Source: a virus
Lineage: Duplodnaviria > Heunggongvirae > Uroviricota > Caudoviricetes
Reading direction: 5' to 3' (one strand)
DNA: 30,585 nt
Virus record (IMG/VR): IMGVR_UViG_2728369593_000008
Span: 1-30,585 of that record
Shown here one piece after another: positions 6,389 to 30,585 of this stretch. The position numbers and the translations under genes are program-made. The notes under the pieces are model-generated. The model was not told where the DNA came from and did no database searches. It saw only the letters and a program-made list of their open reading frames with translations. Each line of letters opens with the position of its first letter. Position 1 is the stretch's first letter.

Positions 6389-6454
6389 ATATTTTCCGGA
6401 AAATGATTATAACTGTGCTATAAATATAATCACCAAATAATATAAAGGTGAGTT

Positions 6455-6964: not shown

Positions 6965-6971
6965 ATATATT

Positions 6972-7015: not shown

Positions 7016-7069
7016 TAATGATTTCCCTAAAACAAATTTTTTTAGAGGAAACTATTTAGGACATTAATA

Positions 7070-9770: not shown

Positions 9771-9781
9771 CTGAGGTAATT

Positions 9782-9964
9782 ATGATCATGCTGATTCTCG
9801 CGCCTCTGGTGGGCGTGCTGGGGGCGCTTTTGCTGGCGTATGGTGCCTGGCTGATTTATCCCCCGGCGGGGTTTGTTGTTGCCGGGGCGTTGTGCCTGTT
9901 CTGGTCGTGGCTGGTGGCGCGATATCTCGACCGTACACAGACGTCTGTCGGCGGAGGTAAATAG
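9782..9964 (+). CDS. Small membrane protein (two predicted transmembrane helices)
   Basis: 60-aa hydrophobic ORF with GAGGT RBS; fits exactly between the terminase stop and portal start, overlapping the portal start by 1 nt. Confidence 0.45.
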
Positions 9965-11833: not shown

Positions 11834-11847
11834 TCAGGAGAAATACG

Positions 11848-13053
11848 ATGGCGGTAGATATTAAAGATGTCGAACAGGTCGCGCAGGAGCTGCAGCAGAA
11901 GTTTGACGACTTCAAAGCAAAGAACGACAAGCGCGTGGATGCGATTGAGCAGGAAAAAGGCAAGCTTGCCGGGCAGGTGGAAACCCTGAACGGAAAACTC
12001 AGCGAGCTGGAAAATCTCAAAAGCGACCTTGAAAAAGAGCTGCTTGAGCTGAAACGTCCGGCAGGTGGTGCGCAAAATAAACTGGCCACCGAGCATAAAG
12101 AAGCGTTTGTGGGCTTCCTGCGTAAAGGCCGTGAAGATGGTCTGCGCGATCTGGAGCGCAAGGCATTACAGGTGGGCACCGATGAAGACGGTGGCTATGC
12201 CGTGCCGGAAGCGCTGGATCGCAACATTCTGACCCTGCTGAAAGATGAAGTGGTGATGCGTCAGGAAGCCACGGTGATCACCGTTGGCGGTTCCGACTAC
12301 AAAAAACTGGTGAATCTGGGCGGTACGGCTTCCGGATGGGTGGGGGAAACGGATACGCGATCCCAGACTGCCACTTCCAGACTGGAGCTGATTGAACCTC
12401 TCATGGGGGAAATCTACGGCAACCCGCAGGCTACCCAGAAAATGCTGGACGATGCCTTCTTCAACGTGGAGGCCTGGATCAACAGCGAGCTGGCAACCGA
12501 ATTTGCCGAACAGGAAGAAATTGCCTTTACCTCAGGCGATGGCACCAAGAAGCCGAAAGGGTTCCTGGCGTATGAATCCACTGATGAAACCGACAAGGTC
12601 CGGGCGTTCGGCAAACTTCAGCATATTGTATCCGGCGAAGCGACCGCGGTGACCGCAGACGCCATTATCAAACTGATTTACACGCTGCGTAAGGCACACC
12701 GCACTGGCGCGAAGTTCATGATGAACAACAACAGCCTGTTTGCCATCCGTCTGCTGAAAGACACCGAGGGTAACTATCTGTGGCGTCCGGGGCTGGAACT
12801 GGGGCAGCCGTCCTCTCTGGCGGGTTACGGTATCGCTGAAAACGAACAGATGCCGGATATCGCCGCTGATGCGAAAGCCATTGCATTTGGTAACTTCAAG
12901 CGGGGTTACACCATCGTTGACCGTATCGGTACCCGCATTCTGCGTGATCCGTACACCAATAAACCATTTGTCGGTTTTTATACCACCAAGCGCACCGGCG
13001 GCATGCTGGTCGATTCGCAGGCCATCAAACTGCTGAAGATTGCAGCGGCGTAA
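11848..13053 (+). CDS. Major capsid protein (HK97 fold) with coiled-coil N-terminal delta domain
   Basis: 401 aa; heptad-like N-terminal ~100 aa; conserved capsid C-terminal region; AGGAG RBS. Confidence 0.9.
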   Translation: MAVDIKDVEQVAQELQQKFDDFKAKNDKRVDAIEQEKGKLAGQVETLNGKLSELENLKSDLEKELLELKRPAGGAQNKLATEHKEAFVGFLRKGREDGLRDLERKALQVGTDEDGGYAVPEALDRNILTLLKDEVVMRQEATVITVGGSDYKKLVNLGGTASGWVGETDTRSQTATSRLELIEPLMGEIYGNPQATQKMLDDAFFNVEAWINSELATEFAEQEEIAFTSGDGTKKPKGFLAYESTDETDKVRAFGKLQHIVSGEATAVTADAIIKLIYTLRKAHRTGAKFMMNNNSLFAIRLLKDTEGNYLWRPGLELGQPSSLAGYGIAENEQMPDIAADAKAIAFGNFKRGYTIVDRIGTRILRDPYTNKPFVGFYTTKRTGGMLVDSQAIKLLKIAAA

Positions 13054-13102
13054 TCATTCATGGGCGCGGAACCGCGCCCCCTGTTCTGAAGGGTGAAGAA
13101 TC

Positions 13103-13303
13103 ATGATCCTGAAACAAGATCTGAAATGGTCACCGGACGGTATGCGTGTTGAGGTCATTCGGGCCGGTGAGTATGACGACGGGGCGCTTCCTGCCCGGGT
13201 GCAGGAGATTGCACTTCAGGCCGGGTTAGCAGAGCGCGGAACCAGTGCAAAAAGCAGTAAAGCGACAAAAGAGAAAAAAGCCACGACCAGTAAAGAGGGC
13301 TGA
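13103..13303 (+). CDS. Small hypothetical head-module protein
   Basis: 66-aa ORF with GGTGA RBS filling the gap between capsid and connector genes; Lys/Ser/Thr-rich C-terminus. Confidence 0.4.
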   Translation: MILKQDLKWSPDGMRVEVIRAGEYDDGALPARVQEIALQAGLAERGTSAKSSKATKEKKATTSKEG

Positions 13304-13305
13304 GC

Positions 13306-13629
13306 ATGCTTCTGACAATGGAAGAGATTAAAGCCCAACTCCGGCTGGATGAGGATTTCGATACTGATGACCGCCATCTGCAACTGCTGGCCTGTGCGGC
13401 ACAAAAGCGGACGGAAACGTATCTGAACCGGAAGCTCTATGCACCGGATGAAACCATTCCGGACAGCGACCCGGACGGACTACACCTGCCGGATGATATT
13501 CGTCTGGGGATGCTGATGCTTATCAGCCATTTTTACGAAAACCGCTCGTCGGTTACGGAAGTGGAGAAACTCGACATGCCGCAGAGTTTTGGCTGGCTTG
13601 TCGGCCCGTACAGGTACTTTCCGCAATGA
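13306..13629 (+). CDS. Head-tail connector / DNA-packaging protein (phage gp6-like)
   Basis: 107 aa; MEEIKAQLRLDEDFDTDD... N-terminus typical of gp6-like adaptors; tightly spaced with neighbouring genes. Confidence 0.7.
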   Translation: MLLTMEEIKAQLRLDEDFDTDDRHLQLLACAAQKRTETYLNRKLYAPDETIPDSDPDGLHLPDDIRLGMLMLISHFYENRSSVTEVEKLDMPQSFGWLVGPYRYFPQ

Positions 13630-17089: not shown

Positions 17090-17358
17090 TGAAAGAGCTT
17101 GAGTTAAAGAAACCGATTATCGCTCATGGTGAGACACTCTCCGTACTGGAGTTTGATGAACCCACCGGGAAGGATGTCCGCGAGCTGGGGTATCCCTACC
17201 AGATGAATCAGGATGAGTCCGTCAGACTTCTGGCGCATGTGGTGTCGAAATACATTGTGCGGCTGGCGAAAGTGCCGCAAAGCTCTGTCGACCAGATGTC
17301 TCCGGCAGACCTGAATGCAGCGGCGTGGCTTGTGGCTGGTTTTTTCCTCCAGGCCTGA
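17089..17358 (+). CDS. Tail assembly chaperone (short, in-frame product)
   Basis: 89 aa; directly upstream of the tape measure gene; ends 10 nt after a T_TTT_TTC slippery heptamer. Confidence 0.75.
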   Translation: MKELELKKPIIAHGETLSVLEFDEPTGKDVRELGYPYQMNQDESVRLLAHVVSKYIVRLAKVPQSSVDQMSPADLNAAAWLVAGFFLQA

Positions 17359-17507
17359 CGGCTGAATACCTCACTGATCGCTTCTTTGACTGCGCCAGCT
17401 ACTGGCGCATTAATCCCTTCGAATTGCTGAATATGCCGATCAGTGAAATTCCCTTGCTGGTCAGTCAGGCAAACAGGATAGAGCAGGAGAAACGCACACA
17501 TGGCTGA
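17089..17507 (+). CDS. Tail assembly chaperone, predicted -1 frameshift fusion product (lambda G/GT analogue)
   Basis: Slippery heptamer T TTT TTC at 17340-17346; the -1 frame is open from there to 17507 and ends 8 nt into the tape measure gene. Confidence 0.6.
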
Positions 17508-19281
17508 ATTTGAGCTTAAGGCGTTGATCACCGGTGTCGACAGGCTTTCTCCCGCGCTGTCGAAAATGCAAAAGAAAATCCGGGGATTTAAACGCCAGGC
17601 GGAAGAGGCGTCACAGGGTGGGCTGGCGCTTGGTGGCGGACTGGCAGCGGGGCTGACGCTTTCCCTGAAATCTTATGCCGATCAGGAAAACGCCGCTACC
17701 GGGCTGAAAGTCGCCATGATGGATGCGAACGGCGAGGTTGGAAAGAGCTTTCAGGACATCAATAAACTGGCTATTGGCCTGGGTAACCAGCTACCCGGTA
17801 CAACGGCTGATTTCCAGAACATGATGCAGATGCTGGTGCGTCAGGGGATCCCGGCAGAAAACATTCTGGGTGGTGTGGGTAAAGCGACAGCTTATCTTGC
17901 GGTACAACTGAAAAAAACACCGGAAGCGGCTGCCGAGTTTGCCGCAAAGATGCAGGATGCTACCGGAACGGCCTCAGAAGACATGATGGGGCTGTTCGAC
18001 ACAATTCAGAAGGCGTTTTATCTGGGCGTTGACGACACCAACATGCTGTCATTCTTCACTAAAACCAGCTCTGTTCTGAAGATGGTGAATAAGGACGGTC
18101 TTCAGGCTGCACAGAGTCTTGCCCCCATCAGTGTCATGATGGATCAGATGGGGATGAACGGGGAGTCGGCAGGTAATGCCCTGCGAAAAGTTATCCAGTC
18201 CGGATTAAGCGTTAAGAAAATCAGGGACGTCAATAAAATCATGGCCCGCCAGAAACTCGGGGTACAGCTCGATTTTACTGATGGCAAAGGGAGTTTTGGC
18301 GGTCTTGATAACATGTTCAGGCAACTGGCAAAGCTGCGAAAACTGACCGACGTTAAGCGAACCGGTGTACTTAAGGCAATATTTGGTGATGATGCCGAAA
18401 CCCTTCAGGTGGTCAATGCTCTGATCGATAAAGGAAAGGATGGTTACGATCAGATCCAGCAGAAGATGCATAAACAGGCCAGCCTGAATAAACGTGTTCA
18501 GGCACAGCTTGGTACGCTGTCCAACCTGTGGGAGGCAATGACGGGGACCGCAACTAACGGTCTTGCAGCTATTGGCGGCGCATTTTCTGGTGACGCTAAA
18601 AATATCACGCAATGGCTGGGGGAGTTGGGGGAAAAATTCACGAAGTTTGCGGATGAAAATCCCCGGGTTATTCGCGGCGTCGTCGGGCTTGCTGCCGGTC
18701 TTGCGATTCTGAAACTGGGATTGATGGGCGTGGGCAGTGCCATCAGCATTGTCAGCAGGATCATGTCGATGACGCCGATTGGCATGATTGCGACGGCGAT
18801 AGCCCTGGCTGCGGGATTAATTATCACTAACTGGGATGTTGTCGGACCTTATTTCAAGAAGCTCTGGGAAACCATTGGTCCTTATTTTGAGGCTGGCTGG
18901 GAACTCCTTAAGAAAGTTTTTGCCTGGTCGCCGCTGGGGATGGTGATCAATAACTGGGGGCCGGTTGTTAAGTGGTTTCAGGATATGTGGGACAAGCTGA
19001 AGCCAATTATTGAATGGTTTACTGATGGTGCCAGCGACACGGTGGTTGCAGCCAATGCGACTCAGTGGGGGGGCGGTGGCTATGGGGCGTACGGTACAGG
19101 CGTTTCTGCTCAGGGATACAATCCGTATCAGATAGTTCAGGCTGCGCCGAAGAAGGCTGAAGGCGAGATTACGGTCTCGTTTAAGGATGCGCCTCCCGGG
19201 ATGCGGGTGACCGATACCCGCTCCAGTGGTATCGACGTGAATCACGACGTTGGTTACACCCGGTTTGGTATGGGGGGCTAA
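17500..19281 (+). CDS. Tail tape measure protein
   Basis: 593 aa; Ala/Gly-rich helical N-terminal half, hydrophobic segment, Trp-rich C-terminus; position after the chaperone pair. Confidence 0.85.
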   Translation: MAEFELKALITGVDRLSPALSKMQKKIRGFKRQAEEASQGGLALGGGLAAGLTLSLKSYADQENAATGLKVAMMDANGEVGKSFQDINKLAIGLGNQLPGTTADFQNMMQMLVRQGIPAENILGGVGKATAYLAVQLKKTPEAAAEFAAKMQDATGTASEDMMGLFDTIQKAFYLGVDDTNMLSFFTKTSSVLKMVNKDGLQAAQSLAPISVMMDQMGMNGESAGNALRKVIQSGLSVKKIRDVNKIMARQKLGVQLDFTDGKGSFGGLDNMFRQLAKLRKLTDVKRTGVLKAIFGDDAETLQVVNALIDKGKDGYDQIQQKMHKQASLNKRVQAQLGTLSNLWEAMTGTATNGLAAIGGAFSGDAKNITQWLGELGEKFTKFADENPRVIRGVVGLAAGLAILKLGLMGVGSAISIVSRIMSMTPIGMIATAIALAAGLIITNWDVVGPYFKKLWETIGPYFEAGWELLKKVFAWSPLGMVINNWGPVVKWFQDMWDKLKPIIEWFTDGASDTVVAANATQWGGGGYGAYGTGVSAQGYNPYQIVQAAPKKAEGEITVSFKDAPPGMRVTDTRSSGIDVNHDVGYTRFGMGG

Positions 19282-19362
19282 TAGCCAGCTTAAGTACGGG
19301 TTTTGTCGTTTTGCTGATTCTTGGTAGGATTAGTCCGATTATTTAATGATGGGAATAGGGAT

Positions 19363-20040
19363 ATGAAAATTCTAACAGTTTATTCAGTTGTCGGCATGGC
19401 TCTTTTACTCGGGGGATGTACATCTCCAAAGTATAATTATTTACCAAAAACAGAAAGTTATAGTGAGCCTCCTGTAGGAAGCATTAATACAGCTTATGTC
19501 GGTGATTCGATGATTAAGCAGGGTGAGTCACAGAAGTTCGAAGGTTTGAAGGTTAATGCTCCCGCGAGAGTTTCCTGGGCTTATACGATTACTCCGGGGA
19601 TGCTGAAAAAGGTTGGTGAGGATAACAAGGCAGATTATTACTTTCTCACAAACGGTGCTGATTCAGCCAATGTGGAAAAGGCAGCTCTTGCCGATATGTG
19701 GCAGGGCATCATGGTAGAAAAGAAAAATAATGCCTTATGTGTAATAACAGTTTTTGGCGCTACCACCTGTGAAACCAACATGCCGATCGAAAAGGTTAAT
19801 CTGAACATCAGTGGTGACTCATCTTTCCAGCAAGCTCTGCTTTACAACGGAAGGGTCGGAAACAAAATCAACATTGGATATCGTGAATTTTCAGCGAATA
19901 CAGCGCGCCCGGCCTTCAACAACGATGTTGAGTATGATCTCGCGGAGTCTAAAACAATTGGCTATAAAGGCGCTAAATTCGAAGTACTTGATGCGAGTAA
20001 CCAAAGCATAAGGTATCGAGTAATAAGTAACTTTAGATAA
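19363..20040 (+). CDS. Putative lipoprotein, AT-rich moron inside the tail module (function unknown)
   Basis: Signal peptide MKILTVYSVVGMALLLGGC with lipobox LLGGC; AGGGA RBS (the ORF track begins at 19321); own downstream terminator; AT-rich relative to neighbours. Confidence 0.65.
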   Translation: MKILTVYSVVGMALLLGGCTSPKYNYLPKTESYSEPPVGSINTAYVGDSMIKQGESQKFEGLKVNAPARVSWAYTITPGMLKKVGEDNKADYYFLTNGADSANVEKAALADMWQGIMVEKKNNALCVITVFGATTCETNMPIEKVNLNISGDSSFQQALLYNGRVGNKINIGYREFSANTARPAFNNDVEYDLAESKTIGYKGAKFEVLDASNQSIRYRVISNFR

Positions 20041-20054
20041 TAGATAATTTATTA

Positions 20055-20079
20055 AAACCTGCTTCGGCGGGTTTTTTTA
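20055..20079 (+). terminator. Rho-independent terminator after the lipoprotein moron
   Basis: AAAACCTGCTTCGGCGGGTTTTTTT: GC stem (one mismatch), TTCG loop, 7-T run. Confidence 0.6.
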
Positions 20080-20093
20080 TATTCGGAGTTTAT

Positions 20094-21104
20094 ATGACGT
20101 GGAAAGACAGGCTTCAGGACGCGTCATTTCGCGGCGTACCGTTTAAGGTTGAAGAAGAAAGTGCGGGAACCGGTCGCCGTGTGGAAACACATGAATACCC
20201 GAACCGCGACAAGCCCTATACCGAAGATCTGGGAAAAGTCACTTTCCGCCCGTCCATCACAGCTTATGTGGTAGGAGATGACTGCTTTGACCAGCGCGAT
20301 CGCCTGATTGAAGCGCTGAATAAACCCGGTCCCGGCACGCTTGTCCACCCGACATATGGTGAGCTGAAAGTCTGTGTTGACGGAGAGGTTCGGGTCAGCA
20401 CATCGAAAAGTGAAGGGCGTATTGTCCGCTTTGACCTGAAGTTTGTCGAAGCAGGAGAACTCTCTTACCCCACATCAGGTGCGGCGACGGCGCAGACGCT
20501 GATGTCATCCTGTTCTGCACTGGATGACTGCATTAGTGACAGCTTCAGCGGTTTCAGTATCGATGGTGTGGCGGATTTCGTGCAGAACGACGTTATCGGT
20601 AATGCCAGCATAATGCTGGGGTATGTTTCTGATGCGATGAAAGTGGTGGATTCTGCCGTATCGGATGCCGCCAGGCTGTTGCAGGGGGATATCTCGGTAC
20701 TTCTGCCGCCGCCATCGTCAGGCAAAAATTTCGTTGAGCAGGTGCAGAAAATGTGGCGTACCGGGAAACGCCTTTATGGTAACGCTAGCGACCTGGTTAC
20801 CATGATCAAAACGCTTTCCGGTGTCAGCCTCGGCAGCGATCTGCAACCGCGCGGCGTCTGGAAAACGGACAGTAAAACCACCGCCACGGCGACGCAGCAG
20901 CGTAACGTGGTTGCCAGCACCCTTCGTACGACCGCAATCAGCGAAGTGGCGTATGCCGTCACCCCGATTGCCTGCGCCAACAACTTCCGCGGTGATGCAG
21001 AATGCCGCAGTGGGGCAGGCAACAACAGCTGCACAGAGCACCGGCTGGCCTTCCGTCACGCATCCGGCACTGAACAATGCACCGGCGGTGAAAAACACGG
21101 TTGA
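20094..21104 (+). CDS. DNA circularisation protein (Mu gpN-like), N-terminal reading frame
   Basis: GGAG RBS; N-terminus resembles the DNA-circulation N-terminal domain; the frame closes at 21104 while the apparent C-terminal part continues in another frame. Confidence 0.6.
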   Translation: MTWKDRLQDASFRGVPFKVEEESAGTGRRVETHEYPNRDKPYTEDLGKVTFRPSITAYVVGDDCFDQRDRLIEALNKPGPGTLVHPTYGELKVCVDGEVRVSTSKSEGRIVRFDLKFVEAGELSYPTSGAATAQTLMSSCSALDDCISDSFSGFSIDGVADFVQNDVIGNASIMLGYVSDAMKVVDSAVSDAARLLQGDISVLLPPPSSGKNFVEQVQKMWRTGKRLYGNASDLVTMIKTLSGVSLGSDLQPRGVWKTDSKTTATATQQRNVVASTLRTTAISEVAYAVTPIACANNFRGDAECRSGAGNNSCTEHRLAFRHASGTEQCTGGEKHG

Positions 21105-21423
21105 CCTGCCGACGTGGGAAGAACTGACTGACATTCGCGACACACTGAATACGGCAATTGATAAGGAGTTGTCCCGTACAACCAGTGATGCGCTGTTTCT
21201 GGCGCTGCGCCGGGTGAAAGCAGATCTGAATGCGGATATCAACACGCGCCTTGAACAGTCTGCACGGATCATTCAGCGCACACCGGATGAGGTTTTACCC
21301 GCGCTGGTGCTGGCGGCGACCTGGTTTGATAACGCGGCGCGTGACGCGGACATTATCCGGCGTAATGCCATTACGCATCCCGGCTTTGTGCCGGTGATCC
21401 CTCTGAAGGTGCCAGTGCAATGA
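21034..21423 (+). pseudogene. C-terminal part of the gpN-like gene in a shifted frame (frameshifted gene or assembly error)
   Basis: ORF 20821..21423 in frame 1 reads as natural protein from about 20990 onward and ends with an ATGA overlap onto the next baseplate gene; combined span 20094..21423 (~443 codons) approaches gpN size. Confidence 0.4.
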
Positions 21424-22511
21424 ACGACAATGTCACGCTACGGGTAAATGGCCGGGAGTGGAATGGCTGGACATCGGTGCGCATCGGTGCCGGTATTGAA
21501 CGGCTGGCGCGGGATTTCAGTGTGGAGATCACCCGCCAGTGGCCGGGAGATGAGGGTATCACCACGCTTCAGCCGCGCATTAAAAACGGTTCAAAAGTGG
21601 AAGTGCTGATTGGTGATGAGCTGGTGATCACCGGCTGGGTGGAGGCGACGCCCGTTCGTTACGATGCCCGTTCGGTCAGCACCGGTATTGCCGGACGCAG
21701 TCTGACCGCTGACCTGATTGACTGTGCAGCCGAACCGACACAGTTTAACGGACGATCACTGGTACAGATAGCGCAGGCGCTTGCTGCGCCTTTCGGCATT
21801 GAGGTGGTGAACAACGGTGCGCCGTCGGGTGTTATTCCTGACGTCCAGCCTGATCACGGTGAAACGGTGATTGAGGTAATCAACAAAATACTCGGTCAGC
21901 AGCAGGCACTGGCTTACGACGACCCGCACGGCAGGCTGGTGATTGGCGGTATTGGCTCAACGCGGGCACATACTGCGCTGGTACTCGGGGAAAACATCCT
22001 TTCCTGCGATACGGAGAAGAGTATCCGGGAGCGGTTTTCTGTTTACCAGGTGGCGGGGCAGCGTGCCGGAAACGACGATGATTTCGGTGAGGCCACCACC
22101 ACCGCGCTGCGGGCCCGCACAGAGGACGCATTTATTGCCCGTTACCGTCCGATGTATATCAGGCAGACAGGGCAGGCTACGGGGGCAGGCTGTATTGCCC
22201 GTGCGGACTTTGAAGCCAGACAACGGGCGGCGCGGACGGATGAAACCACCTATGTGGTGCAGGGCTGGCGACAGGGTAACGGTACGCTGTGGCAGCCCAA
22301 CCAGCGGGTGATTGTCTTTGATCCGGTCTGTGGTTTCGACAATACCGAACTGCTTGTTTCGGAAGTCACGTTTACTCAGGACCAGAACGGCACCCTGACG
22401 GAAATCCGTGTCGGCCCACCTGATGCTTATCTGCCTGAACCCGAAGCCCCCGGCGCGCGGAAAAAGAAAAAGCCAGAGTACAGGAGGACCCGTTCTGATG
22501 AGGACGATTGA
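21420..22511 (+). CDS. Baseplate hub / tail protein (Mu gpP-like, P2 gpD-like)
   Basis: 363 aa; position after the gpN-like gene; ATGA coupling. Confidence 0.7.
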   Translation: MNDNVTLRVNGREWNGWTSVRIGAGIERLARDFSVEITRQWPGDEGITTLQPRIKNGSKVEVLIGDELVITGWVEATPVRYDARSVSTGIAGRSLTADLIDCAAEPTQFNGRSLVQIAQALAAPFGIEVVNNGAPSGVIPDVQPDHGETVIEVINKILGQQQALAYDDPHGRLVIGGIGSTRAHTALVLGENILSCDTEKSIRERFSVYQVAGQRAGNDDDFGEATTTALRARTEDAFIARYRPMYIRQTGQATGAGCIARADFEARQRAARTDETTYVVQGWRQGNGTLWQPNQRVIVFDPVCGFDNTELLVSEVTFTQDQNGTLTEIRVGPPDAYLPEPEAPGARKKKKPEYRRTRSDEDD

Positions 22512-23046
22512 AGCCATGCAGCGACAACTCCTCGGCCTGATTGGGCGGGCAGTGGTGAAAAGCATCAGTGCCGCCACGAAATGTCAGACCGTGGATGTGT
22601 CCCTGATTGCCGGTGAACCCAAAGCCGGGGTTGAACATCTTGAACCCTACGGTTTTACCGCAAGGGCAAACAGCGGTGCGGAAGCGGTGGTGTTGTTTCC
22701 GGATGGCGACCGTTCTCATGCGGTGGTTGTTACGGTGTCGGACCGGCGCTACCGCCTGAAAGGGTTGCAGACGGGTGAGGTGGCTGTCTATGACGATCAG
22801 GGGCAGTCCGTGACGCTGACCCGGGAGGGGATCGTGGTGGACGGTGCAGGTAAAACGATCACGTTTCGCAATTCACCTAAAGCACGTTTTGAAATGGACC
22901 TGGAAGTGACAGGACAGGTGAAAGACCTGTGCGACTCCGGCGGCACCACCATGTCAGCGATGCGGCTTGCCTATAACGGGCATCGTCACAGAGAGAACGG
23001 TCAGGGCAGTAACACCGACAAACCTGATAAAGCGATGGAGGCATGA
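22498..23046 (+). CDS. Baseplate spike/assembly protein (Mu gp45-like, gpV-like)
   Basis: ATG 22498 preceded by AGGAGG (the longer ORF begins at 22408 inside the previous gene); position in the baseplate cluster. Confidence 0.65.
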   Translation: MRTIEAMQRQLLGLIGRAVVKSISAATKCQTVDVSLIAGEPKAGVEHLEPYGFTARANSGAEAVVLFPDGDRSHAVVVTVSDRRYRLKGLQTGEVAVYDDQGQSVTLTREGIVVDGAGKTITFRNSPKARFEMDLEVTGQVKDLCDSGGTTMSAMRLAYNGHRHRENGQGSNTDKPDKAMEA

Positions 23047-23471
23047 TGGAACTGTGGCTGACGGTGAACGGTAAACGCACCTGCGCCAGCGCACCGCTGG
23101 ATCCGCTGACCCGCGCCGTGGTGATTTCCCTGTTTACCTGGCGGCGGGCGGAGCCTGATGACAACGCCGACGTCCCGATGGGATGGTGGGGGGATACCTG
23201 GCCTGCGGTACAGAATGACCGTTACGGCTCCCGACTGTGGCTGCTTCAGCGCAGCAAACTGACCAATCAGCTGGTGCAGACGGTAAGGGGATATATCCGC
23301 GAATGCCTGCAATGGATGATTGATGACGGCGTGGTGTCCCGTATTGATCTGGATATCCGCCGCACCGGGATTAATGAACTGGGTAACAGTATCACTCTCT
23401 GGCGTCGTGACGGACCGGTAATGATTTCTTTTGATGATCTGTGGAGTGCGATAACGCATGGCGGACAGTGA
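23043..23471 (+). CDS. Baseplate protein (Mu gp46-like)
   Basis: 142 aa; ATGA overlap with the previous gene; position. Confidence 0.65.
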   Translation: MMELWLTVNGKRTCASAPLDPLTRAVVISLFTWRRAEPDDNADVPMGWWGDTWPAVQNDRYGSRLWLLQRSKLTNQLVQTVRGYIRECLQWMIDDGVVSRIDLDIRRTGINELGNSITLWRRDGPVMISFDDLWSAITHGGQ

Positions 23472-24516
23472 ATTTCAGCGCCCGACGCTGGCAGAAAATA
23501 TCAGTATGCTCCGTAACGATTTATTCGCCAGGCTGGACGTCAGCGACACGCTCCGGCGCATGGATGAAGACGTGCGGGCAAAGGTGTATGCGGCGGCGCT
23601 GCATACGGTTTACGGGTACATCGATTATCTGGCAATGAACATGCTGCCTGACCTGTGCGATGAGTCCTGGCTGGCGCGACATGCTGCGATGAAACGGTGT
23701 CCGCGCAAGGGGGCCACGGCTGCCAGCGGGTATATGCGCTGGGAAGGTGTCAGCGATGGCCTGAAGGTGACTGCCGGGAGCGTGATTCAGCGCGATGACC
23801 TGGTTCAGTACACGGCAACTGCCGATGCAACCAGCACCGGTGGTGTCCTGCGTGTGCCGATCGCCTGCTCAAGTGCAGGCGCGGTCGGTAACGCTGACGA
23901 CGGTACGTCATTAATCCTGGTCACGCCGGTTAATGGTCTGCCGTCTTCCGGCGTGGCAGATACCCTGACAGGTGGATTTGATACTGAAGAGCTGGAAACG
24001 TGGCGCGCCCGCGTCATTGAGCGGTATTACTGGACGCCTCAGGGCGGGGCTGACGGGGACTATGTCGTCTGGGCTAAAGAAGTGCCCGGCATTACCCGCG
24101 CATGGACATACCGTCACTGGATGGGAACGGGAACTGTCGGTGTGATGATTGCCAGCAGTGACCTGATTAATCCCATTCCGGAAGAATCAACGGAAACGGC
24201 GGCAAGACAACACATTGAGCCACTGGCCCCGGTGGCAGGCTCTGATTTGTATGTATTCAGGCCGGTGGCACATACGGTGGATTTTCATATCCGCGTGACG
24301 CCGGACACACCAGAAATACGGGCTGCCATTACCGCGGAGTTGCGTTCGTTCCTGCTGCGTGATGGTTATCCGCAGGGAGAACTGAAGGTATCGCGTATCA
24401 GTGAGGCGATTTCCGGTGCGAACGGGGAATACAGCCATCAGTTGCTTGCACCGGTGGACAATATCTCCATTGCGAAAAATGAGCTGGCGGTTCTGGGGAC
24501 GATTTCATGGACGTGA
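23458..24516 (+). CDS. Baseplate J-like protein (Mu gp47-like)
   Basis: 352 aa; size and position typical of baseplate J family proteins. Confidence 0.7.
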
Positions 24517-25091
24517 CAAACGATGATTACATCCGCCTGTTATCGGCACTGTTGCCGCCCGGTCCTGCATGGTCAGCCAGCGATCCGGCGATTGCCGGTG
24601 CGGCACCGTCATTAACCCGCGTTCATCAGCGTGCGGATGCCCTGATGCGGGAGCTGGATCCGCGCACCACCACTGAACTGATAAACCGCTGGGAGCGTCT
24701 GTGCGGTCTGCCGGATGAATGTATTCCGGCGGGAACGCAGACCCTTCGCCAGCGTCAGCAACGGCTGGATGCGAAGGTTAACCTGGCGGGCGGCATCAAC
24801 GAGGATTTTTATCTTGCACAGCTTGCTGCCCTGGGCAGACCAGATGCCACCATCACGCGATACGACAAAAGCACGTTCACCTGCTCATCGGCCTGTACTG
24901 ACGCGGTGAATGCGCCGGAATGGCGGTATTACTGGCAGGTCAACATGCCAACCACCACCAACACCACCTGGATGACATGTGGCGATCCCTGTGATTCCGC
25001 ACTGCGTATCTGGGGTGACACCGTTGTCGAGTGTGTGCTTAACAAACTCTGCCCGTCGCATACCTACGTAATTTTTAAATATCCGGAGTAA
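24507..25091 (+). CDS. Tail protein (Mu gp48-like, upstream of the tail fibre)
   Basis: 194 aa; overlaps the previous gene; position. Confidence 0.6.
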
Positions 25092-25094
25092 TCC

Positions 25095-25886
25095 ATGCAT
25101 CGTATAGACACGAAAACCGCGCAGAAGGATAAGTTCGGCGCGGGTAAGAACGGTTTTACCCGTGGTAACCCCCAGACTGGCACGCCTGCCACCGATCTGG
25201 ATGATGACTACTTTGATATGTTGCAGGAAGAACTCTGCAGCGTGGTGGAGGCATCCGGTGCCAGCCTGGAGAAAGGGCGGCATGACCAGCTGCTTACCGC
25301 ACTTCGTGCGCTGCTGTTAAGCCGCAAGAATCCGTTTGGCGATATCAAATCGGATGGCACAGTGCAAACGGCTCTCGAAAACCTTGGTTTAGGAGAAGCG
25401 GCGAAAAGGGATGTGGGCACGACAGTCGGAACCGTTGCCGCTGGTGATGATTTACGCATAACAGGAGCACTTCAAAAGGCAAATAATCTTTATGAGTTAA
25501 CAAATAAATCTGACGCAAGAGCTAATCTTGGGTTAGGAACCGTTGCAACAAAAAACGTGGGAAATAGTGCTGGGCAAATACCTGATATGTCTTACTGGTC
25601 TTCACCGGCAGGCGGAATTAATTTCCCGAATGGATTCCAGATGCGATTCGGTGCTATCGCTGGTAATGGTGGAAAATTATTTTCTACGCCATTTACAAAT
25701 CAGTGCTATGGCATTGTTTTCGGACAAACATATGCAGCCAACTACTGGATATTCAGCCCAATGTACAGAGCATCTGATCTGAGTAATACCGGTTTTGCAT
25801 TCATTAACAAAGCCTGGTCTGGAATTCCGGGGACAGGTGCTCAGGACGCTGGTGAATCAGTTTTTTATATTGCAGTAGGGTATTAA
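25095..25886 (+). CDS. Tail fibre protein: constant N-terminal part (to ~25385) fused to the variable C-terminal part currently in the expressed orientation
   Basis: 263 aa; a 26-bp gix/hix-like recombination site lies inside the gene at 25372-25397; followed by a tail-fibre assembly gene. Confidence 0.8.
25372..25397 (+). repeat. Left recombination site of the invertible segment (gix/hix/pix-like, 26 bp)
   Basis: CTCTCGAAAACC-TT-GGTTTAGGAGAA; the reverse complement TTCTCCTAAACC-AA-GGTTTTCGAGAG resembles the gix consensus as I recall it; core TT at 25384-25385. Confidence 0.65.
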
Positions 25887-25887
25887 T

Positions 25888-26331
25888 ATGGAAATGGTTT
25901 ATAGCGCCTCAAAAAATAGTTTTTTCGCTAAAAATGATGTGGCGAAATATGAACAGGCCGGATGGGAACTTGCTGATGTTGTCGAAGTGACATATGACAC
26001 TTACCTGGAATTTATTGAAGACAGAACGTTGCAAGGGAAAGTACGCATCGCGGGTGATGATGGCCTTCCCACCTGGGGGGAAATTCCACCGCCAACTCAT
26101 GAGGAACAAATTGCCGCAGCCGAACTGGAAAAGCAGCAATTGATTAATCAGGTCAACGAATACATAAACAGTAAGCAATGGCCTGGTAAAGCAGCGATTG
26201 GTCGCCTAAAAGGTGAGGAACTGGCGCAATATAATTTGTGGCTGGATTATCTGGACGCACTGGAGCTGGTCGATACTTCCGGTGCGCCAGATATTGAATG
26301 GCCTACGCCTCCGGCAGTTCAGGCCAGATGA
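25888..26331 (+). CDS. Tail fibre assembly protein (Tfa, expressed orientation)
   Basis: 147 aa; C-terminus ...LDYLDALELVDTSGAPDIEWPTPP is the Tfa motif and is shared with the inverted copy. Confidence 0.8.
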   Translation: MEMVYSASKNSFFAKNDVAKYEQAGWELADVVEVTYDTYLEFIEDRTLQGKVRIAGDDGLPTWGEIPPPTHEEQIAAAELEKQQLINQVNEYINSKQWPGKAAIGRLKGEELAQYNLWLDYLDALELVDTSGAPDIEWPTPPAVQAR

Positions 26332-26896
26332 CGTCCGGCGCTGTGCTGGTATCTGTTGCCGTCACCGCGTCAATATAATCCAGCACAGCGTTAAGTCGGG
26401 TGTTTTCTGGCTGCGTCAGCTTCCGCCCGGCCTGTAATTTCAGTTGAATCAGACTGATGGAAGCCATTGCAGCATCAATCAGCGACTGGCGCTGTGCTTC
26501 TGCCGCTTCTACTGCGGCGCTATGCTGTGCCTCGGTATCCGTCACCCATTTCTCACCATCCCATTTATCGTATGGCGTTAACGGTGAAAGCGTGACATAA
26601 CCGTCTTTGATGGCACCGATATAATCCACTGTAACAGCTGCGCCATTTTCAGTTGAGTAAACGGTCTCATTGCGATGGTCTTCTTCATGGCTCCATCCCT
26701 TACCCGTAAATACTGCCACTTTTCCCGGAATGTTTTCGCTCGGGTCAATACCAGTGGAACAGGCGGGCATACTTACGCCAGTATTAATATATTCATCAGA
26801 CCAGCCGGTATATTCATACGTTACTGCATTATAATAAAAACAACGCATATCGCCCGGCACTGTAGCCAGCCCATTTTCATCAAAAACAGGTTTCAT
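26303..26896 (-). CDS. Alternative tail fibre assembly protein (Tfa', silent orientation)
   Basis: 197 aa on the - strand, converging on tfa; C-terminus ...LDYIDAVTATDTSTAPDVIWPELPEA matches the Tfa motif. Confidence 0.8.
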   Translation of the reverse strand: MKPVFDENGLATVPGDMRCFYYNAVTYEYTGWSDEYINTGVSMPACSTGIDPSENIPGKVAVFTGKGWSHEEDHRNETVYSTENGAAVTVDYIGAIKDGYVTLSPLTPYDKWDGEKWVTDTEAQHSAAVEAAEAQRQSLIDAAMASISLIQLKLQAGRKLTQPENTRLNAVLDYIDAVTATDTSTAPDVIWPELPEA

Positions 26897-27425
26897 TATT
26901 TAGCCCTCACCAGAAAGTTAAATGCAATATTTCGTGGACGGGTTTCTGTACCTACATTTCCACTAATTTCACCATAACGTTTAACACTACGAGAGCTAAG
27001 AGCTCGTAGTGAGGAAGGCACCTTAAGACCGGGTTCGTCCGTTTTAACTATTCCCCCGTCACCATATGTAGCCAGTATTCCTGGGTTTACTCCTTCCCGT
27101 GCACTTCCTGCGGCAAGCCCGCCCCCGTCCACAATTCCATATTGTGTGCATGATCCATAATTGTGTGTGATTGCCCTGAAAGTAGGGTACGTCCGACATC
27201 AATCCCGCGCCCGTCATCCCAGATACGAATGAAATCACCGCGTGCGTCAGGTAATGCCAGCGCCGGAAACACTTTCGCCAGCACAGGGTAATCAGTGGCA
27301 GAGAATTTCGCGCCGTTGAACTTCAAAAACACCATACTGGACCAGCTATCGATTACGGTATCTGGCATTGCAGCGGACGGCCAGAAGAACGGAACGCCAA
27401 TAGCTGGAGCTCCTTCTCCCAAACC
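26896..27425 (-). pseudogene. Alternative tail-fibre variable C-terminal segment; promoterless and apparently frameshifted
   Basis: Two overlapping - strand ORFs in different frames (27087..27422 and 26896..27132); the first begins exactly at the recombination site (LGEGAPAIG...GRGIDVGR...HTIMDHAHN), the second ends ...ETRPRNIAFNFLVRAK; frame break near 27090-27150. Confidence 0.55.
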
Positions 27426-27439
27426 AACCTTTCAAATAT
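27414..27439 (+). repeat. Right recombination site of the invertible segment (inverted relative to the left site)
   Basis: TTCTCCCAAACC-AA-CCTTTCAAATAT; the inner half-site matches the left site's inner half 11/12 in inverted orientation; the outer half is degenerate. Confidence 0.6.
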
Positions 27440-27498
27440 TTTTCTGAATCAGGTGATATTTCGCCTCTTCTCCTGTTTTTACAACAGGAGAAGCACTC

Positions 27499-28062
27499 AT
27501 GATTTACGGGTATGTTCGTGTATCAACAAATCATCAGGATACAGAGTTGCAACGTCTTGCACTTGAGTCAGCTGGCTGTGAGCGAATTTATGAAGAATAT
27601 GCCAGTGGCAGAACAGCTAATCGCCCTGTGTTAAAGGAATTAATTACGGTGATGAAAAGTGGAGATGAGTTGATTGTCTGGAAGTTAGATCGGATAGGGA
27701 GAAATGTGCTGCATGCGCTATTGATGTTTCAAAATCTGCACGAAAAAGGTGTTAATTTTCGGAGTATTACAGATGGCGTAGACCTGAAAACAGCAAGTGG
27801 TCGCTATAATTTCCGTAATATTCTTTCTGCTGCGCAGTATGAATCTGATTTGAATAGCGAGCGAACTTTAGCTGGTTTGGCTATTGCCAGATCCAAAGGC
27901 CGGATTGGTGGGCGTAGACCGAAGTTTAGCGACGAGCAGTGGCAACAGATGGGAGCGCTCATAGCGGCAGGGAAATCACGGCGTTATGTTGCACGTATCT
28001 ATAACGTTGGGCTATCAACCCTATATAAACGATTTCCTGTTACTGGCATTCAAACGAAATAA
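27499..28062 (+). CDS. Serine-recombinase DNA invertase (Pin/Gin/Hin/Cin family)
   Basis: N-terminus MIYGYVRVSTNHQDTELQR with the catalytic Ser in the YxRVST motif; ...WKLDRIGRN...; C-terminal HTH (GLSTLYKRF); closely resembles e14 Pin as I recall it. Confidence 0.9.
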   Translation: MIYGYVRVSTNHQDTELQRLALESAGCERIYEEYASGRTANRPVLKELITVMKSGDELIVWKLDRIGRNVLHALLMFQNLHEKGVNFRSITDGVDLKTASGRYNFRNILSAAQYESDLNSERTLAGLAIARSKGRIGGRRPKFSDEQWQQMGALIAAGKSRRYVARIYNVGLSTLYKRFPVTGIQTK

Positions 28063-28205
28063 TTTAAAAGCAATTTAAAGAGTTATTTGTCTAATGTTGG
28101 AAGCCGCAGCCACGTCGTATGCAAGAACGTGCTGCGGCTGGCTGGCGAACTTTCGATAGTGCGAGTATTGAATGATTTCCAGCCGTTACCGATTTTACGT
28201 ATTAA

Positions 28206-28454
28206 TTAGTGAACAAACCACTCGTCAGCAGATTCCCAGGTATCTTTCAGAGTCTCCTGAACAAAAGTTTTTGCAGAATCCTTATCTGTGGTGCGTGTAA
28301 CAGAAAGGCCATCGTTGCTGGTGGCTTTTACGATCACCTCTACATCGTCATAACGTTTACTGATGCGTCGGGTTAATTCTTCCTTTAACGCATCCACAGC
28401 ACCGGTTGGCATTTTAGTCATTTTTTCTTTGGCTATGCAGATTTCAATACGCAT
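28206..28454 (-). CDS. DinI-family protein (DNA-damage-inducible protein I-like)
   Basis: 82 aa; [11 protein letters not shown]...[11 protein letters not shown]...[14 protein letters not shown] aligns with E. coli DinI as I recall it. Confidence 0.8.
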
Positions 28455-28515
28455 AAAAGTCCCTCTATACTGTGTTTGTATACAGTATTATTTTTAACTG
28501 TATGGATAAACAGTG

Positions 28516-29613
28516 TCAAGAGGTCTTATTTCTGCTCCTTTGGAGCTCTTCAAAACGATTATGTAAAGATTTCGGATACAGTTCGGTATATACCTGCCAT
28601 AGCACGTTTAATGAACGATGCCCTGTAACCTGGGCGACTTCCTCAATACTAAAACCAGCCTCAAATAAGCGACTTGCCCCTTCTCTACGCAAATCATGGT
28701 ATCGCAGATCTTTAATACCTAATTTGCTTCTTACCCTCTGGAATCCCGCAGTAACAGAAGTGCTGTTATATGGAAAAATGAATTCTGATTTTTTGGGTTG
28801 TCGTTGGACGATATCCCAGGCTTCCCCAAGCAAGGCTACTTTCATATGGTTGCCTTCCTTTTTACGTGGATCTTTCCTGTCTCTTACGAGTATGGATTTT
28901 TGTTCCTGATCGAGATCCTCCCATCGTAATCGGCATACTTCACCGATTCGCATACATGACCACACAGAAAATTTGAGGATATCAACGAACGGAATTTTTG
29001 AGCATTTATGTGTAGATCGTTGTTGAAGACCTTCAATGAGCATGTCCAGTTCATCAGATGCCGGTCTACGATTACGACGATTTGATTTACCAATTAAACC
29101 AAGTTTAAGTAGATATGGACGAGCGGCTTTTGCTGGGTTTGATGTGTAATTAATTCCATATACAGGTTTGGCAGCATCCAGAACACTGCCAAGATAACTA
29201 ACATCGTGGCTAACTGTAGCTGGACCTGCACCAGCGTTGTTTCTTAGCCTGCAATGTTCAATTACGTCATTTTCTGTCAGTTCAGATAGTTTGATCGCGG
29301 AGATGTCACTATCCATAAGCAGTTCCAGCACATATCTTTTAGTACGGCCTGCTTTACCTCCGGCATTTGGGTCATTTAAATATTTGTGTAGTAAGTCACG
29401 GACTGTAAGTCCGTCAACTGCATTTGATGATGGAATGCCATATAGATCTAATTCCATCACTTTCTGTGTGCCCCATGTTTTGGCATGAGCATGTTTAGGG
29501 AATGTTTTGCTTTCCCTGTAAGTGATAACACCTTTTTCTTTGATAATCACATTACAGCGATAGCGTGGTGTGCCATCGGATTTTAGTCGTTTCTCTATGT
29601 TATAGTACGCCAT
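28516..29613 (-). CDS. int: Tyrosine integrase (dusA-associated integrase type)
   Basis: 365 aa; C-terminal catalytic region with HDLRREGASRL...VTGHRSLNVLWQVYTELY (His/Arg/Tyr of the tyrosine-recombinase fold); adjacent to the dusA 5' end. Confidence 0.9.
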   Translation of the reverse strand: MAYYNIEKRLKSDGTPRYRCNVIIKEKGVITYRESKTFPKHAHAKTWGTQKVMELDLYGIPSSNAVDGLTVRDLLHKYLNDPNAGGKAGRTKRYVLELLMDSDISAIKLSELTENDVIEHCRLRNNAGAGPATVSHDVSYLGSVLDAAKPVYGINYTSNPAKAARPYLLKLGLIGKSNRRNRRPASDELDMLIEGLQQRSTHKCSKIPFVDILKFSVWSCMRIGEVCRLRWEDLDQEQKSILVRDRKDPRKKEGNHMKVALLGEAWDIVQRQPKKSEFIFPYNSTSVTAGFQRVRSKLGIKDLRYHDLRREGASRLFEAGFSIEEVAQVTGHRSLNVLWQVYTELYPKSLHNRFEELQRSRNKTS

Positions 29614-29701
29614 TACACGACCTCGTTATTTCGGGTTCCCATAAAACGTGGGAACCTGTGCGGGAACCTAACGCGAGAAAAATAGCCTGAAATGTTCAAA
29701 A

Positions 29702-30585
29702 ATGCACGATAATCATGAAACACAAAAAATTAATCAAACCAGCGTGATGCCTGAAAAAACTGGTGTTTACTGGAATTCTCGGTTTAGCATTGCTCCTATG
29801 CTTGACTGGACGGACAGACATTGCCGTTATTTCTTGCGTCTGCTTTCCCGCAATACGTTGCTGTATACCGAAATGGTGACCACAGGGGCGATTATTCACG
29901 GTAAAGGTGATTACCTGGCGTACAGTGAAGAAGAACATCCGGTAGCGTTGCAACTCGGGGGTAGCGATCCGGCGGCGCTGGCACAGTGTGCGAAGCTGGC
30001 AGAAGCGCGTGGATACGATGAGATCAACCTGAATGTCGGCTGCCCGTCTGACCGGGTGCAGAACGGCATGTTTGGTGCGTGTCTGATGGGTAATGCGCAG
30101 CTGGTTGCCGACTGCGTGAAAGCGATGCGCGATGTGGTGTCGATTCCGGTGACGGTGAAAACGCGTATTGGCATCGATGATCAGGACAGCTATGAATTTC
30201 TCTGCGATTTCATCAACACCGTTTCCGGCAAAGGTGAGTGTGAGATGTTCATCATCCACGCACGTAAAGCCTGGCTTTCTGGGTTAAGTCCGAAAGAAAA
30301 CCGTGAGATCCCGCCGCTCGATTATCCGCGTGTGTATCAACTGAAGCGTGACTTTCCGCATCTGACGATGTCGATTAACGGTGGTATCAAGTCGCTGGAA
30401 GAAGCTAAAGCGCATTTGCAACATATGGATGGCGTGATGGTCGGGCGCGAGGCGTATCAGAATCCGGGTATTCTGGCGGCGGTAGACCGAGAGATTTTTG
30501 GTTCCTCGGATACTGATGCTGATCCGGTGGCGGTAGTGCGCGCCATGTATCCGTACATTGAGCGTGAACTCAGCCAGGGTACGTA
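29702..30585 (+). CDS. dusA: tRNA-dihydrouridine synthase A, 3' partial (host gene, runs off the window)
   Basis: In-frame translation [44 protein letters not shown]...[11 protein letters not shown]...[31 protein letters not shown] matches E. coli DusA. Not in the ORF track because it has no stop in the window; the true start may be the in-frame ATG at 29747. Confidence 0.9.

Follow-up and report, generated by a model that had tools for sequence, protein, structure and literature searches.

Does the tail-fibre region of this prophage still act as a switch between two fibres, and would both of its orientations yield a usable product? The region lies in a window of 30,585 nucleotides (the whole stretch of DNA analysed), which is a single whole contig of the draft WGS assembly AKYH01000030.1 and represents one Mu-tailed, e14/SfV-like prophage inserted at dusA. 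Upstream of the fibre gene, Pfam identifies the Mu-type baseplate genes gp46, gp47, and gp48; with its head, lysis, and tail genes the prophage looks complete and is collinear with the dusA prophage of ETEC H10407 and with Escherichia phage SKA5. It is no cryptic remnant. Invertible tail-fibre segments have been textbook material since the Mu G and e14 P segments, and the region described here is such an ordinary, well-known phage device, a Gin/Pin-type tail-fibre switch. In all likelihood, it serves as a host-range switch of the prophage that flips about 2.04 kb and whose silent face is broken by a one-base deletion.

Two fibre cassettes between inverted sites

The elements of the switch are located in the window as follows:

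25095-25385, + strand: Sc, constant fibre N-terminus (codons 1-97), outside the invertible segment; ORF 25095-25886
25372-25397, no strand: left 26-bp recombination site, CTCTCGAAAACC-TT-GGTTTAGGAGAA; crossover dinucleotide 25384-25385
25384-27427, no strand: invertible segment, 2044 bp including both core dinucleotides; 2016 bp between the 26-bp sites
25386-25886, + strand: Sv, variable C-terminus now expressed; whole fibre 263 aa
25888-26331, + strand: tfa, tail-fibre assembly chaperone, 147 aa, co-expressed with Sv; Pfam Caudo_TAP, E = 6.9e-31
26303-26896, - strand: tfa', silent alternative chaperone, 197 aa, intact; Pfam Caudo_TAP, E = 1.2e-27
26896-27425, - strand: Sv', silent alternative fibre C-terminus of the tail-collar type; frame interrupted by a 1-nt deletion
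27414-27439, no strand: right 26-bp recombination site, TTCTCCCAAACC-AA-CCTTTCAAATAT; crossover dinucleotide 27426-27427
27467-27493, + strand: hairpin in the invertase leader, 11-bp stem, predicted -15.4 kcal/mol; includes the Shine-Dalgarno sequence AGGAG (27486-27490)
27499-28062, + strand: serine DNA invertase, 187 aa, PinL-like clade; Pfam Resolvase, E = 3.3e-36, and HTH_7, E = 7.3e-12

Inside the segment, the cassettes Sv-tfa and tfa'-Sv' converge, and the invertase gene is situated just outside. The two fibre C-termini are unrelated, one being gp53-like by RefSeq naming and the other of the tail-collar type, and each is followed by its own chaperone gene (two convergent Caudo_TAP genes). 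Over residues 1-103, the fibre shares 95-99% identity with e14 StfP and with the prophage fibres of H10407, CX15, and ML775. The Sv cassette is rare: ungapped full-length matches are found in PT62 (97%) and in a silent copy in ML775 (95%), and only 4 of 5426 genomes cover it to at least 80%; the ML775 homologue of tfa shares 97% identity. A full-length match to the native 3.3-kb region was absent from 5426 complete E. coli genomes, in which the cassette combination of the window is thus unrepresented. An Rfam search of the window gave no match, and a promoter/terminator scan of it performed no better than on shuffles.

A reading made earlier from the sequence alone had proposed a gix/hix-like 26-bp site at 25372-25397 (CTCTCGAAAACCTTGGTTTAGGAGAA) and had suggested alignment with Gin/Hin-family sites. 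With the comparison sites read from the MG1655 and Mu records, this alignment confirmed the proposal: the left site is identical to the left site of e14 at 25 of 26 positions and the right site to its e14 counterpart at 20 of 26, while 19 (left) and 15 (right) positions agree with Mu gix. The inner half-site had further been said to recur inverted at 27414-27425. It does recur, but the restriction to a half-site did not hold, since a complete 26-bp site, inverted relative to the left one, occupies 27414-27439 (TTCTCCCAAACCAACCTTTCAAATAT). The central dinucleotides TT and AA match, as is needed for inverted sites, and G-L-G-E is encoded at both sites, each in its own fibre frame, in agreement with the peptide junction noted earlier. 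The outer half of the right site (ATATTTGAAAGG vs the usual ...AAACC) is poor, with an in-frame TGA inside it. The right site is identical in H10407, EC-07, phage SKA5, M8/SK6988, and phi80, and its asymmetric core AAACC-AA-CCTTT is kept in other genera. The 15-mer TTGGTTTRGGAGAAG occurs in exactly two copies in the window, one per strand, and was matched in 0 of 100 shuffles, which rules out a chance inverted repeat; a repeat search returned the site pair as a 20-nt inverted repeat with 85% complementarity. A multi-site, shufflon-like system is also ruled out, as there are two good sites only and further matches are poor.

When the segment is inverted in silico, the constant part joins Sv' in frame, and 19 complete E. 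coli genomes carry this fused junction as one uninterrupted stretch; the prediction that inversion attaches the constant N-terminus to an alternative C-terminus therefore stands. The reading as a tail-fibre switch is supported, with every structural element of the Gin/Pin type present. In the mechanism proposed, the small serine recombinase would bind as dimers to both 26-bp sites, cut them at the central TT/AA, rotate the ends, and religate them, leaving the roughly 2.04 kb flipped. In the present orientation, the late operon would read the fibre head (aa 1-97), Sv, completing the 263-aa fibre, and then tfa; after inversion, the fibre head would join Sv' at the common G-L-G-E, followed by tfa'. 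In Mu and P1, the orientation of the fibre segment sets the host range; by analogy, different host ranges would be expected from the two orientations here.

The missing base in the silent cassette

The silent chaperone gene tfa', which overlaps tfa by 29 nt, is intact as had been claimed, with a 100% identical RefSeq homologue in L003. Sv' is split into two frames because a base is missing between G 27121 and C 27122 on the + strand, where the window reads GCCCGCCCCCGTCC and intact copies read GCCCGTCCCCCGTCC; the lesion falls inside the bracket of 27090-27150 predicted for the frame break. This deletion is missing from three intact Sv' copies compared base by base, and intact copies are present in 60 genomes. 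Sixty-one E. coli records cover the Sv' cassette, and the 30 listed each span one base more than the query; the exact deletion-bearing sequence found no match in 185,579 representative genomes. A programmed frameshift is ruled out, since one-frame intact copies are the rule.

Because of the missing base, the fibre of the flipped state is predicted to comprise 209 aa instead of 273 and to lack the last 75 residues, so that the locus does not hold two complete fibre reading frames. The truncated fibre is very probably non-functional. The switch would still turn, with one working face only. The parallel once drawn with a broken cassette in cryptic e14 had to be dropped: the stfE cassette of e14 is an uninterrupted reading frame and is termed a pseudogene solely for want of the constant N-terminus.

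As the deletion is known only from a draft contig, either a mutation private to this strain or an error in the consensus could explain it. In the latter case, the switch would be functional in both orientations, a conceivable if not the favoured outcome. The window being a whole contig of a draft assembly would fit such an error, as would the position of the deletion, which has a G5 run on one side and a G3 run on the other (minus strand), the extra base in all 30 listed best E. coli matches, the unmatched deletion sequence, and the otherwise intact module. However, an A/T base with G/C runs on either side was lost, whereas the commonest type of error alters the length of a homopolymer. Silent cassettes are moreover without selection while silent, so that private frameshifts are expected, and other parts of the module have decayed in relatives (the invertases of ML775, PT62, and the second prophage of H10407). 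A real mutation, leaving a switch with a single working face, is the preferred reading.

Inversion in relatives and kinship with known switches

Near-isogenic genomes provide direct views of both orientations. Strain M8 and SK6988/RSHH22 (M8 and SK6988 being mouse E. coli) show one 1827-bp stretch between the same sites in opposite, exactly inverted orientations, with 0 mismatches inside it and a single SNP in the flanks, and all carry an invertase (WP_000639149.1), leader, and right site identical to those of the window. Another invertase working in trans may account for the M8/SK6988 flip; such action in trans is described for PinQ on e14 (PMC12529663). The H10407 dusA prophage is collinear with the window in both flanks (97.9% and 99.3% identity), whereas window positions 26143-27427 match it in reverse; the breakpoints of this orientation change lie at 25398 and 27413-27427, on the two sites. 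The tfa'-Sv' module of H10407 is intact and in the expressed orientation, and its second cassette differs from that of the window. An in-silico inverted copy of the H10407 segment, used as a query, retrieved no clonal partner. A PinE-type relative offers a further case: isolates CX15 and CX07 have records of the same length and show no flank difference over 7.5 kb of comparison, yet an exact inversion of 1845 bp, at homologous sites, separates them. As read from the genomes of M8/SK6988 and H10407, inversion at these sites is seen to occur in nature. Among relatives, the invertase is truncated in ML775 and PT62 and frameshifted in the second prophage of H10407.

It is improbable that the element is a frozen relic whose segment no longer inverts here, e.g. 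owing to weak expression of the invertase or to degeneracy of the outer half-site. Such a state would agree with the strong predicted hairpin that buries the ribosome-binding site of the invertase, the lack of a promoter-like site in the scan, the departure of the right outer half-site from the AAACC consensus, and the existence of a truncated relic of the same module in phi80. Against it, an identical invertase, leader, and right site go together with the exact inversion between M8 and SK6988/RSHH22, the conservation of the AAACC-AA-CCTTT core and the hairpin across genera argues for function, and the invertase reading frame is unbroken and matches that of SKA5, an isolated phage, at 100% identity.

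Among known systems, the e14 P segment with PinE of E. coli K-12 (stfP-tfaP / tfaE-stfE, pinE) has the gene order of the window, namely ymfQ, fibre, tfa, tfa', Sv', and invertase. The constant part of the fibre is 95% identical, the inner half of the right site is identical, and the crossover junction is the same G-L-G-E. In contrast, PinE shares only 54% identity with the window invertase, the variable cassettes are unlike, the right site departs from that of e14 in its outer half, where the window has a stop codon, and the silent cassette is open in e14 but frameshifted in the window; e14 is a cryptic remnant at icd, whereas the window prophage resides at dusA and is apparently complete. Experiments have documented inversion of the e14 P segment between TTGGTTTGGGAGAAGG and CCTTCTCCCAAACCAA, an active process with complete chimeric genes as its products (PMC12529663; PMC4272514).

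In e14, PinQ and StfE2 reportedly set a precedent for a fibre fragment that blocks adsorption (PMC12529663), and the host could likewise have co-opted the present module as a recombinase-activated anti-phage system, in which a chimeric fibre fragment keeps other phages from adsorbing. The near identity of the constant region and left site to those of e14, whose inverted P segment reportedly gives T2 resistance (PMC12529663), points in this direction. This is nevertheless highly improbable: e14 StfE2 starts from a short invertase-side leader, MPFACYFFIFINVGLGE, but the corresponding frame in the window offers no ATG and is stopped by a TGA two codons ahead of G-L-G-E, so that a StfE2 equivalent cannot be made that way, and a prophage of complete appearance, collinear with H10407 and SKA5, is no cryptic remnant. 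A host-range switch of the prophage remains the preferred reading.

The Mu G segment with Gin resembles the window in its layout of Sc plus Sv-U and U'-Sv', with gin outside the segment, and in its 26-bp sites with an AAACC-NN-GGTTT core. It differs in that Gin is 50% identical, the gix sites form perfect inverted repeats around a GA core, and the 3-kb G segment carries larger fibre modules unrelated to those of the window. The H10407 dusA prophage and phage SKA5 are closer, with identical invertase protein, right site, and leader, the same integration module (DinI, integrase, dusA), and flanks 98-99% identical; SKA5 and EC-07 carry other Sv cassettes than the window. In phi80, a pinL relic is adjoined by dinL, and its right site, leader, and IR3 hairpin are identical to those of the window. 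PinL shares 80% identity across 172 aa and has the helix-E signature of the window enzyme, but the phi80 invertase ends before the end of the HTH and a single cassette fragment is left, hence no invertible segment. The flagellar switch of Salmonella (Hin/hix) shares the enzyme family and the logic of 26-bp sites, and Hin is the reference for the mechanism, with a Fis/enhancer invertasome and subunit rotation (PMC3798978, PMC4513852). Hin flips a promoter, whereas the window segment flips coding cassettes.

The PinL-like invertase and its control

The window enzyme retains the catalytic Ser9, which Gin and PinE share in the alignment, as well as the invariant Arg/Asp residues. Its best relative of solved structure is Gin (E = 1.2e-56, residues 1-181), against E = 1e-21 for gamma-delta resolvase; judged by such sequence matches, the enzyme is closer to invertases than to resolvases. 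It is 100% identical to the H10407/M8 protein and to that of SKA5. No sigma-70-like promoter for the invertase was found in the promoter scan of the window. The leader hairpin, annotated as IR3 in phi80, shows one compensatory pair change in other genera.

The regulatory helix E deviates from that of classical enzymes. There, a hydrophobic switch F-F-F-H-V-M corresponds to Hin F104-M109 (PMC4513852). The window enzyme reads Y-N-F-R-N-I instead, with Asn, Arg, and Ile at the equivalents of Hin F105, H107, and M109, so that of the switch nothing but the counterpart of the essential Hin F106 remains. This motif is invariant in 115/115 members of the PinL-like clade, sampled as representatives of clusters, which share 77-99% identity and come from a wide range of enterobacterial genera; the extended signature is Y-N-F-R-N-I...A..Y vs F-F-F-H-V-M...L..M. 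The PinL-like Asn aligns with Hin F105, and the Hin F105N variant is faster than the wild type, Fis-independent, and SOS-inducing.

Hin K47, R48, K51, Q151, R154, and L155 are reported to be conserved in DNA invertases alone and to serve Fis/enhancer activation (PMC3798978). At these positions, the window enzyme has K46, E47, T50, Q150, A153, and L154, thus keeping 3/6 and lacking the basic residues equivalent to Hin R48, K51, and R154, whereas Gin and PinE keep 6/6. Hin numbering is taken here to be Gin numbering plus one, which fits Gin K46/R47/K50. Of the 115 clade members, only 8 have a basic residue at position 50, and the residues at 150, 153, and 154 vary. Since several residues of Fis/enhancer activation in Hin, Gin, and Cin are absent, regulation of the invertase may differ.

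Whether the PinL-like enzymes form a distinct, widespread, and uncharacterised subfamily, with a control that departs from the Fis/enhancer paradigm of Hin/Gin/Cin/Pin, is doubtful at present. The invariant helix-E signature, the Asn at the position of Hin F105, the loss of two of the three enhancer-contacting basic residues of helix B in the window enzyme, the lack of conservation of the proposed Fis-contacting residues across the clade, and the conserved, asymmetric core AAACC-AA-CCTTT of the invertase-side site would speak for it; the strong hairpin over the ribosome-binding site would then limit activity at the level of expression instead. A degenerate Fis-motif scan gave no strict match in the window, and no validated pattern in gin or pinE either. 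Synonymous-site conservation in the clade is raised over nt 1-54 and weakly over 145-180, and the Gin/Pin control profile is similar; given this resemblance, an enhancer embedded in the 5' part of the gene may still exist in the PinL-like clade. A literature search found no paper on pinL or on dusA prophage invertases.

As a tail-fibre switch, the locus offers nothing conceptually new, the same module being annotated in hundreds of E. coli genomes. Its practical use is that annotators of this contig now have the precise crossover points and the single-base lesion, and that near-isogenic strains among public complete genomes form natural "before and after" inversion pairs that demonstrate activity. 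The only mildly new point is the conserved, uncharacterised PinL-like clade with a regulatory helix unlike that of Gin, Hin, and Pin. It could be used to test how Fis/enhancer dependence evolved, and could supply differently regulated small invertases for engineering.

Prophage context and layout of the switch

The window corresponds to the entire 30,585-bp contig AKYH01000030.1 of the draft assembly GCA_001605745.1. It is identified as a temperate phage of the Mu-tailed, e14/SfV-like type, integrated in dusA, because it ends in dusA preceded by an integrase gene, carries Mu-type baseplate genes (gp45, gp46, Baseplate_J/gp47, and gp48/YmfQ) upstream of the fibre switch and the integration genes, and shows mosaic collinearity with the dusA prophage of ETEC H10407 and the isolated Escherichia phage SKA5. 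Three blocks (2652-7067, 9690-13503, and 17124-20117) yield no or weak matches (83-84%, short stretches) to the H10407 prophage, which outside them is 96-99% identical to the window. These blocks appear to fall in the lysis, head, and tape-measure parts and represent ordinary phage mosaicism. The features of the switch and its surroundings are the following:

Fibre codons 1-97, constant head, outside the segment
25386-25886, plus strand, expressed variable fibre C-terminus (Sv), inside the segment
25888-26331, plus strand, chaperone gene tfa (Caudo_TAP), inside the segment
26303-26896, minus strand, silent chaperone gene tfa' (Caudo_TAP), inside the segment
26896-27425, minus strand, silent variable C-terminus (Sv'), inside the segment
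27499-28062, invertase gene (Resolvase and HTH_7 domains), outside the segment
28206-28454, minus strand, DinI-like gene, before dusA
28516-29613, minus strand, tyrosine integrase, before dusA
29702 onward, 5' part of dusA, right end of the window

The invertible segment measures 2044 bp with both cores counted, and the crossover lies at Leu97 of the fibre. Compared with homologues, the 263-aa expressed fibre and the products of tfa and tfa' are full length, in agreement with the sequence-only reading, which had described the silent tfa' as intact. The two chaperone genes are convergent and overlap by 29 nt (26303-26331). The inverted repeats at mid-segment (26241-26258 / 26367-26384) are not recombination sites; they are explained by the conserved motifs at the chaperone C-termini, LDYLDA and LDYIDA, whose coding sequences lie on opposite strands. 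Another prophage (L019, on a Logan SRR6361986 contig) encodes the rare 263-aa fibre residue for residue, together with a PinE-type invertase (184-aa) and a different silent cassette; cassettes pass between switches run by different invertase clades.

The left site (25372-25397, CTCTCGAAAACCTTGGTTTAGGAGAA) is identical to the e14 site of MG1655 at 25/26 positions and to Mu gix at 19/26, both taken directly from the public records, confirming the gix/hix-like site of the sequence-only reading. Its inverted counterpart, noted at 27414-27425, is likewise real but was only half described: a full 26-bp site is present (27414-27439, TTCTCCCAAACCAACCTTTCAAATAT), of which it makes up the inner half. 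This right site shares 20/26 positions with e14, its inner half being identical, and 15/26 with gix. The central dinucleotides, TT on the left and AA on the right, fit the requirement for inverted orientation. The 15-mer common to both sites, TTGGTTTRGGAGAAG, has two copies in the window, one on each strand, and was matched in 0 of 100 shuffles. As had been read, each site encodes G-L-G-E in its respective fibre frame. For the e14 P segment, 16-nt repeats have been published (TTGGTTTGGGAGAAGG / CCTTCTCCCAAACCAA; PMC12529663), and the window agrees with the left one at 14/16 positions and with the right one at 16/16. A further 16-nt stretch (27459-27474) lies beyond the segment, in the interval that separates the right site from the invertase. 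It complements the opening codons of the expressed Sv (25391-25406, AGGAGAAGCGGCGAAA) at 15/16 positions and resembles the remnant of a former inner half-site with the beginning of a cassette, the estimated chance expectation being ~0.1 for such a match in that region.

Inversion among relatives

Compared with the H10407 dusA prophage, which encodes a 100% identical invertase, the window aligns forward at 20118-25398 (97.9%) and 27413-30585 (99.3%) and in reverse at 26143-27427 (97.3%), the change of orientation being bounded exactly by the left and right sites. The predicted fusion of the constant N-terminus to the alternative C-terminus (Sv'), made in silico, has a junction that is contiguous DNA in 19 complete genomes. 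In the mouse E. coli strains M8, SK6988, and RSHH22, the dusA prophage encodes the same invertase protein (WP_000639149.1) and has an identical right site. An exact inversion of 1827 bp between the sites separates M8 from SK6988 and RSHH22, and the 8 kb compared show 0 mismatches within the segment and a single flanking SNP. In a PinE-type element, CX15 and CX07 are distinguished by an exact 1845-bp inversion at homologous sites, with equal record lengths and identical flanks (7.5 kb compared); the search tables suggest a like split among the 0H isolates. Inversion of the e14 segment was shown experimentally (PMC4272514; PMC12529663). Taken together, these comparisons make it very likely that the window's enzyme and sites are competent for inversion. 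An invertase acting in trans might also account for flips seen in relatives, with a precedent in PinQ, which acts on e14 (PMC12529663). In H10407, the 1.9-kb invertible segments of the dusA prophage and of a prophage at 2.95 Mb with a frameshifted invertase of its own (L004 and L006) are 99.9% identical, which suggests recent segment exchange or one invertase serving both in trans.

The silent cassette

The alternative segment had been read as split into two frames, and the cause was located: one T is missing on the plus strand between 27121 and 27122, giving GGACGGGGGCGGGC on the minus strand versus GGACGGGGGACGGGC in all three intact copies aligned (one each from an e14-like and a P2-like prophage, and one from H10407, where the phage is of a third type). 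The Sv' cassette is present in 60 complete genomes, and each of the 30 best matches listed spans one base more than the query; the exact deletion-bearing sequence was absent from 185,579 representative genomes scanned. In silico, inversion yields a fibre of 209 aa that ends in 11 out-of-frame residues, the last 75 residues being lost, and restoring the base gives a 273-aa protein, as in H10407. One cassette is thus apparently inactivated by a single-base deletion, either a private mutation or a consensus error, which a draft contig does not distinguish.

The analogy drawn to e14 for this broken cassette is incorrect, because the stfE frame is uninterrupted and its pseudogene label is due solely to the want of a constant head. 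The anti-phage role claimed for StfE2, the e14 inversion product, relies on a short leader ORF starting on the invertase side (PMC12529663). Whereas this 17-codon leader (MPFACYFFIFINVGLGE) is open in e14-type elements, the window has a TGA in that frame two codons before G-L-G-E (27428-27433, outer half of the right site, minus-strand frame). The silent cassette is therefore unreadable from the invertase side, and a StfE2-like route is closed.

The invertase clade and its control

The invertase is 54% identical to PinE and 50% to Gin. Its identity rises to 80% with the truncated PinL of phi80, a phage whose right site and leader are the same as the window's, and to 100% with the SKA5 enzyme. 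Of the 701 relatives that a database search returned (E <= 1e-40), the best 115 full-length cluster representatives, which come from Escherichia, Salmonella, Citrobacter, Klebsiella, Enterobacter, Serratia, Kluyvera, and others, were taken as the PinL-like clade. All 115 carry Y103-N104-F105-R106-N107-I108...A111...Y114, whereas Gin and PinE have F-F-F-H-V-M...L...M. In Hin, the residues at these helix-E positions keep the dimer inactive, and the F105N variant is hyperactive, works independently of Fis, and induces SOS (PMC4513852). Among the residues reported as uniquely conserved in DNA invertases for enhancer/Fis activation (basic Hin 47/48/51; Q151/R154/L155; PMC3798978), the window enzyme keeps 3/6, and they vary across the clade. 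A Fis-motif scan for an enhancer gave no informative pattern. Synonymous-site conservation in the clade has a peak at nt 1-54 and a weak one at 145-180, with similar peaks in a small Gin/Pin control set. Regulation that differs from that of classical invertases is possible for the clade, but with a low probability.

In other genera, the invertase-side site retains the asymmetric core AAACC-AA-CCTTT, with an inverted partner 1.7-3.4 kb upstream at 4/9 loci examined (two Morganella species, Erwinia tracheiphila, and Kluyvera intermedia). The catalytic serine codon is TCA in 20/20 invertase genes compared (window 27519-27531 and homologous positions in 19 others), and the synonymous sites of GTATCAACAAA around it hardly vary in either the PinL-like or the Gin/Pin clade. 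This pattern hints that a cis-acting constraint applies to the first 55 nt of the gene, possibly part of an enhancer. Just upstream of the ATG, a hairpin (27467-27493; 11-bp stem, CTTCTCCTGTT / TTTAC / AACAGGAGAAG, -15.4 kcal/mol), annotated as IR3 in phi80, buries the Shine-Dalgarno sequence. In relatives from Kluyvera, Trabulsiella, Shimwellia, and Apirhabdus, a single pair of the stem has changed in a compensatory manner (C-G to T-A). The hairpin probably holds translation of the invertase at a low level. The DinI-like gene adjoins the invertase, as in dinL-pinL of phi80 (L017), near which LexA sites are annotated. As SOS is induced by Hin F105N, the clade might conceivably be linked in function to a RecA modulator.

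The whole element is a real, ordinary Gin/Pin-type tail-fibre inversion switch, as the sequence-only reading had interpreted it. It is closely related to the e14 P segment, lies in a dusA prophage, and is run by a less-studied invertase paralogue.
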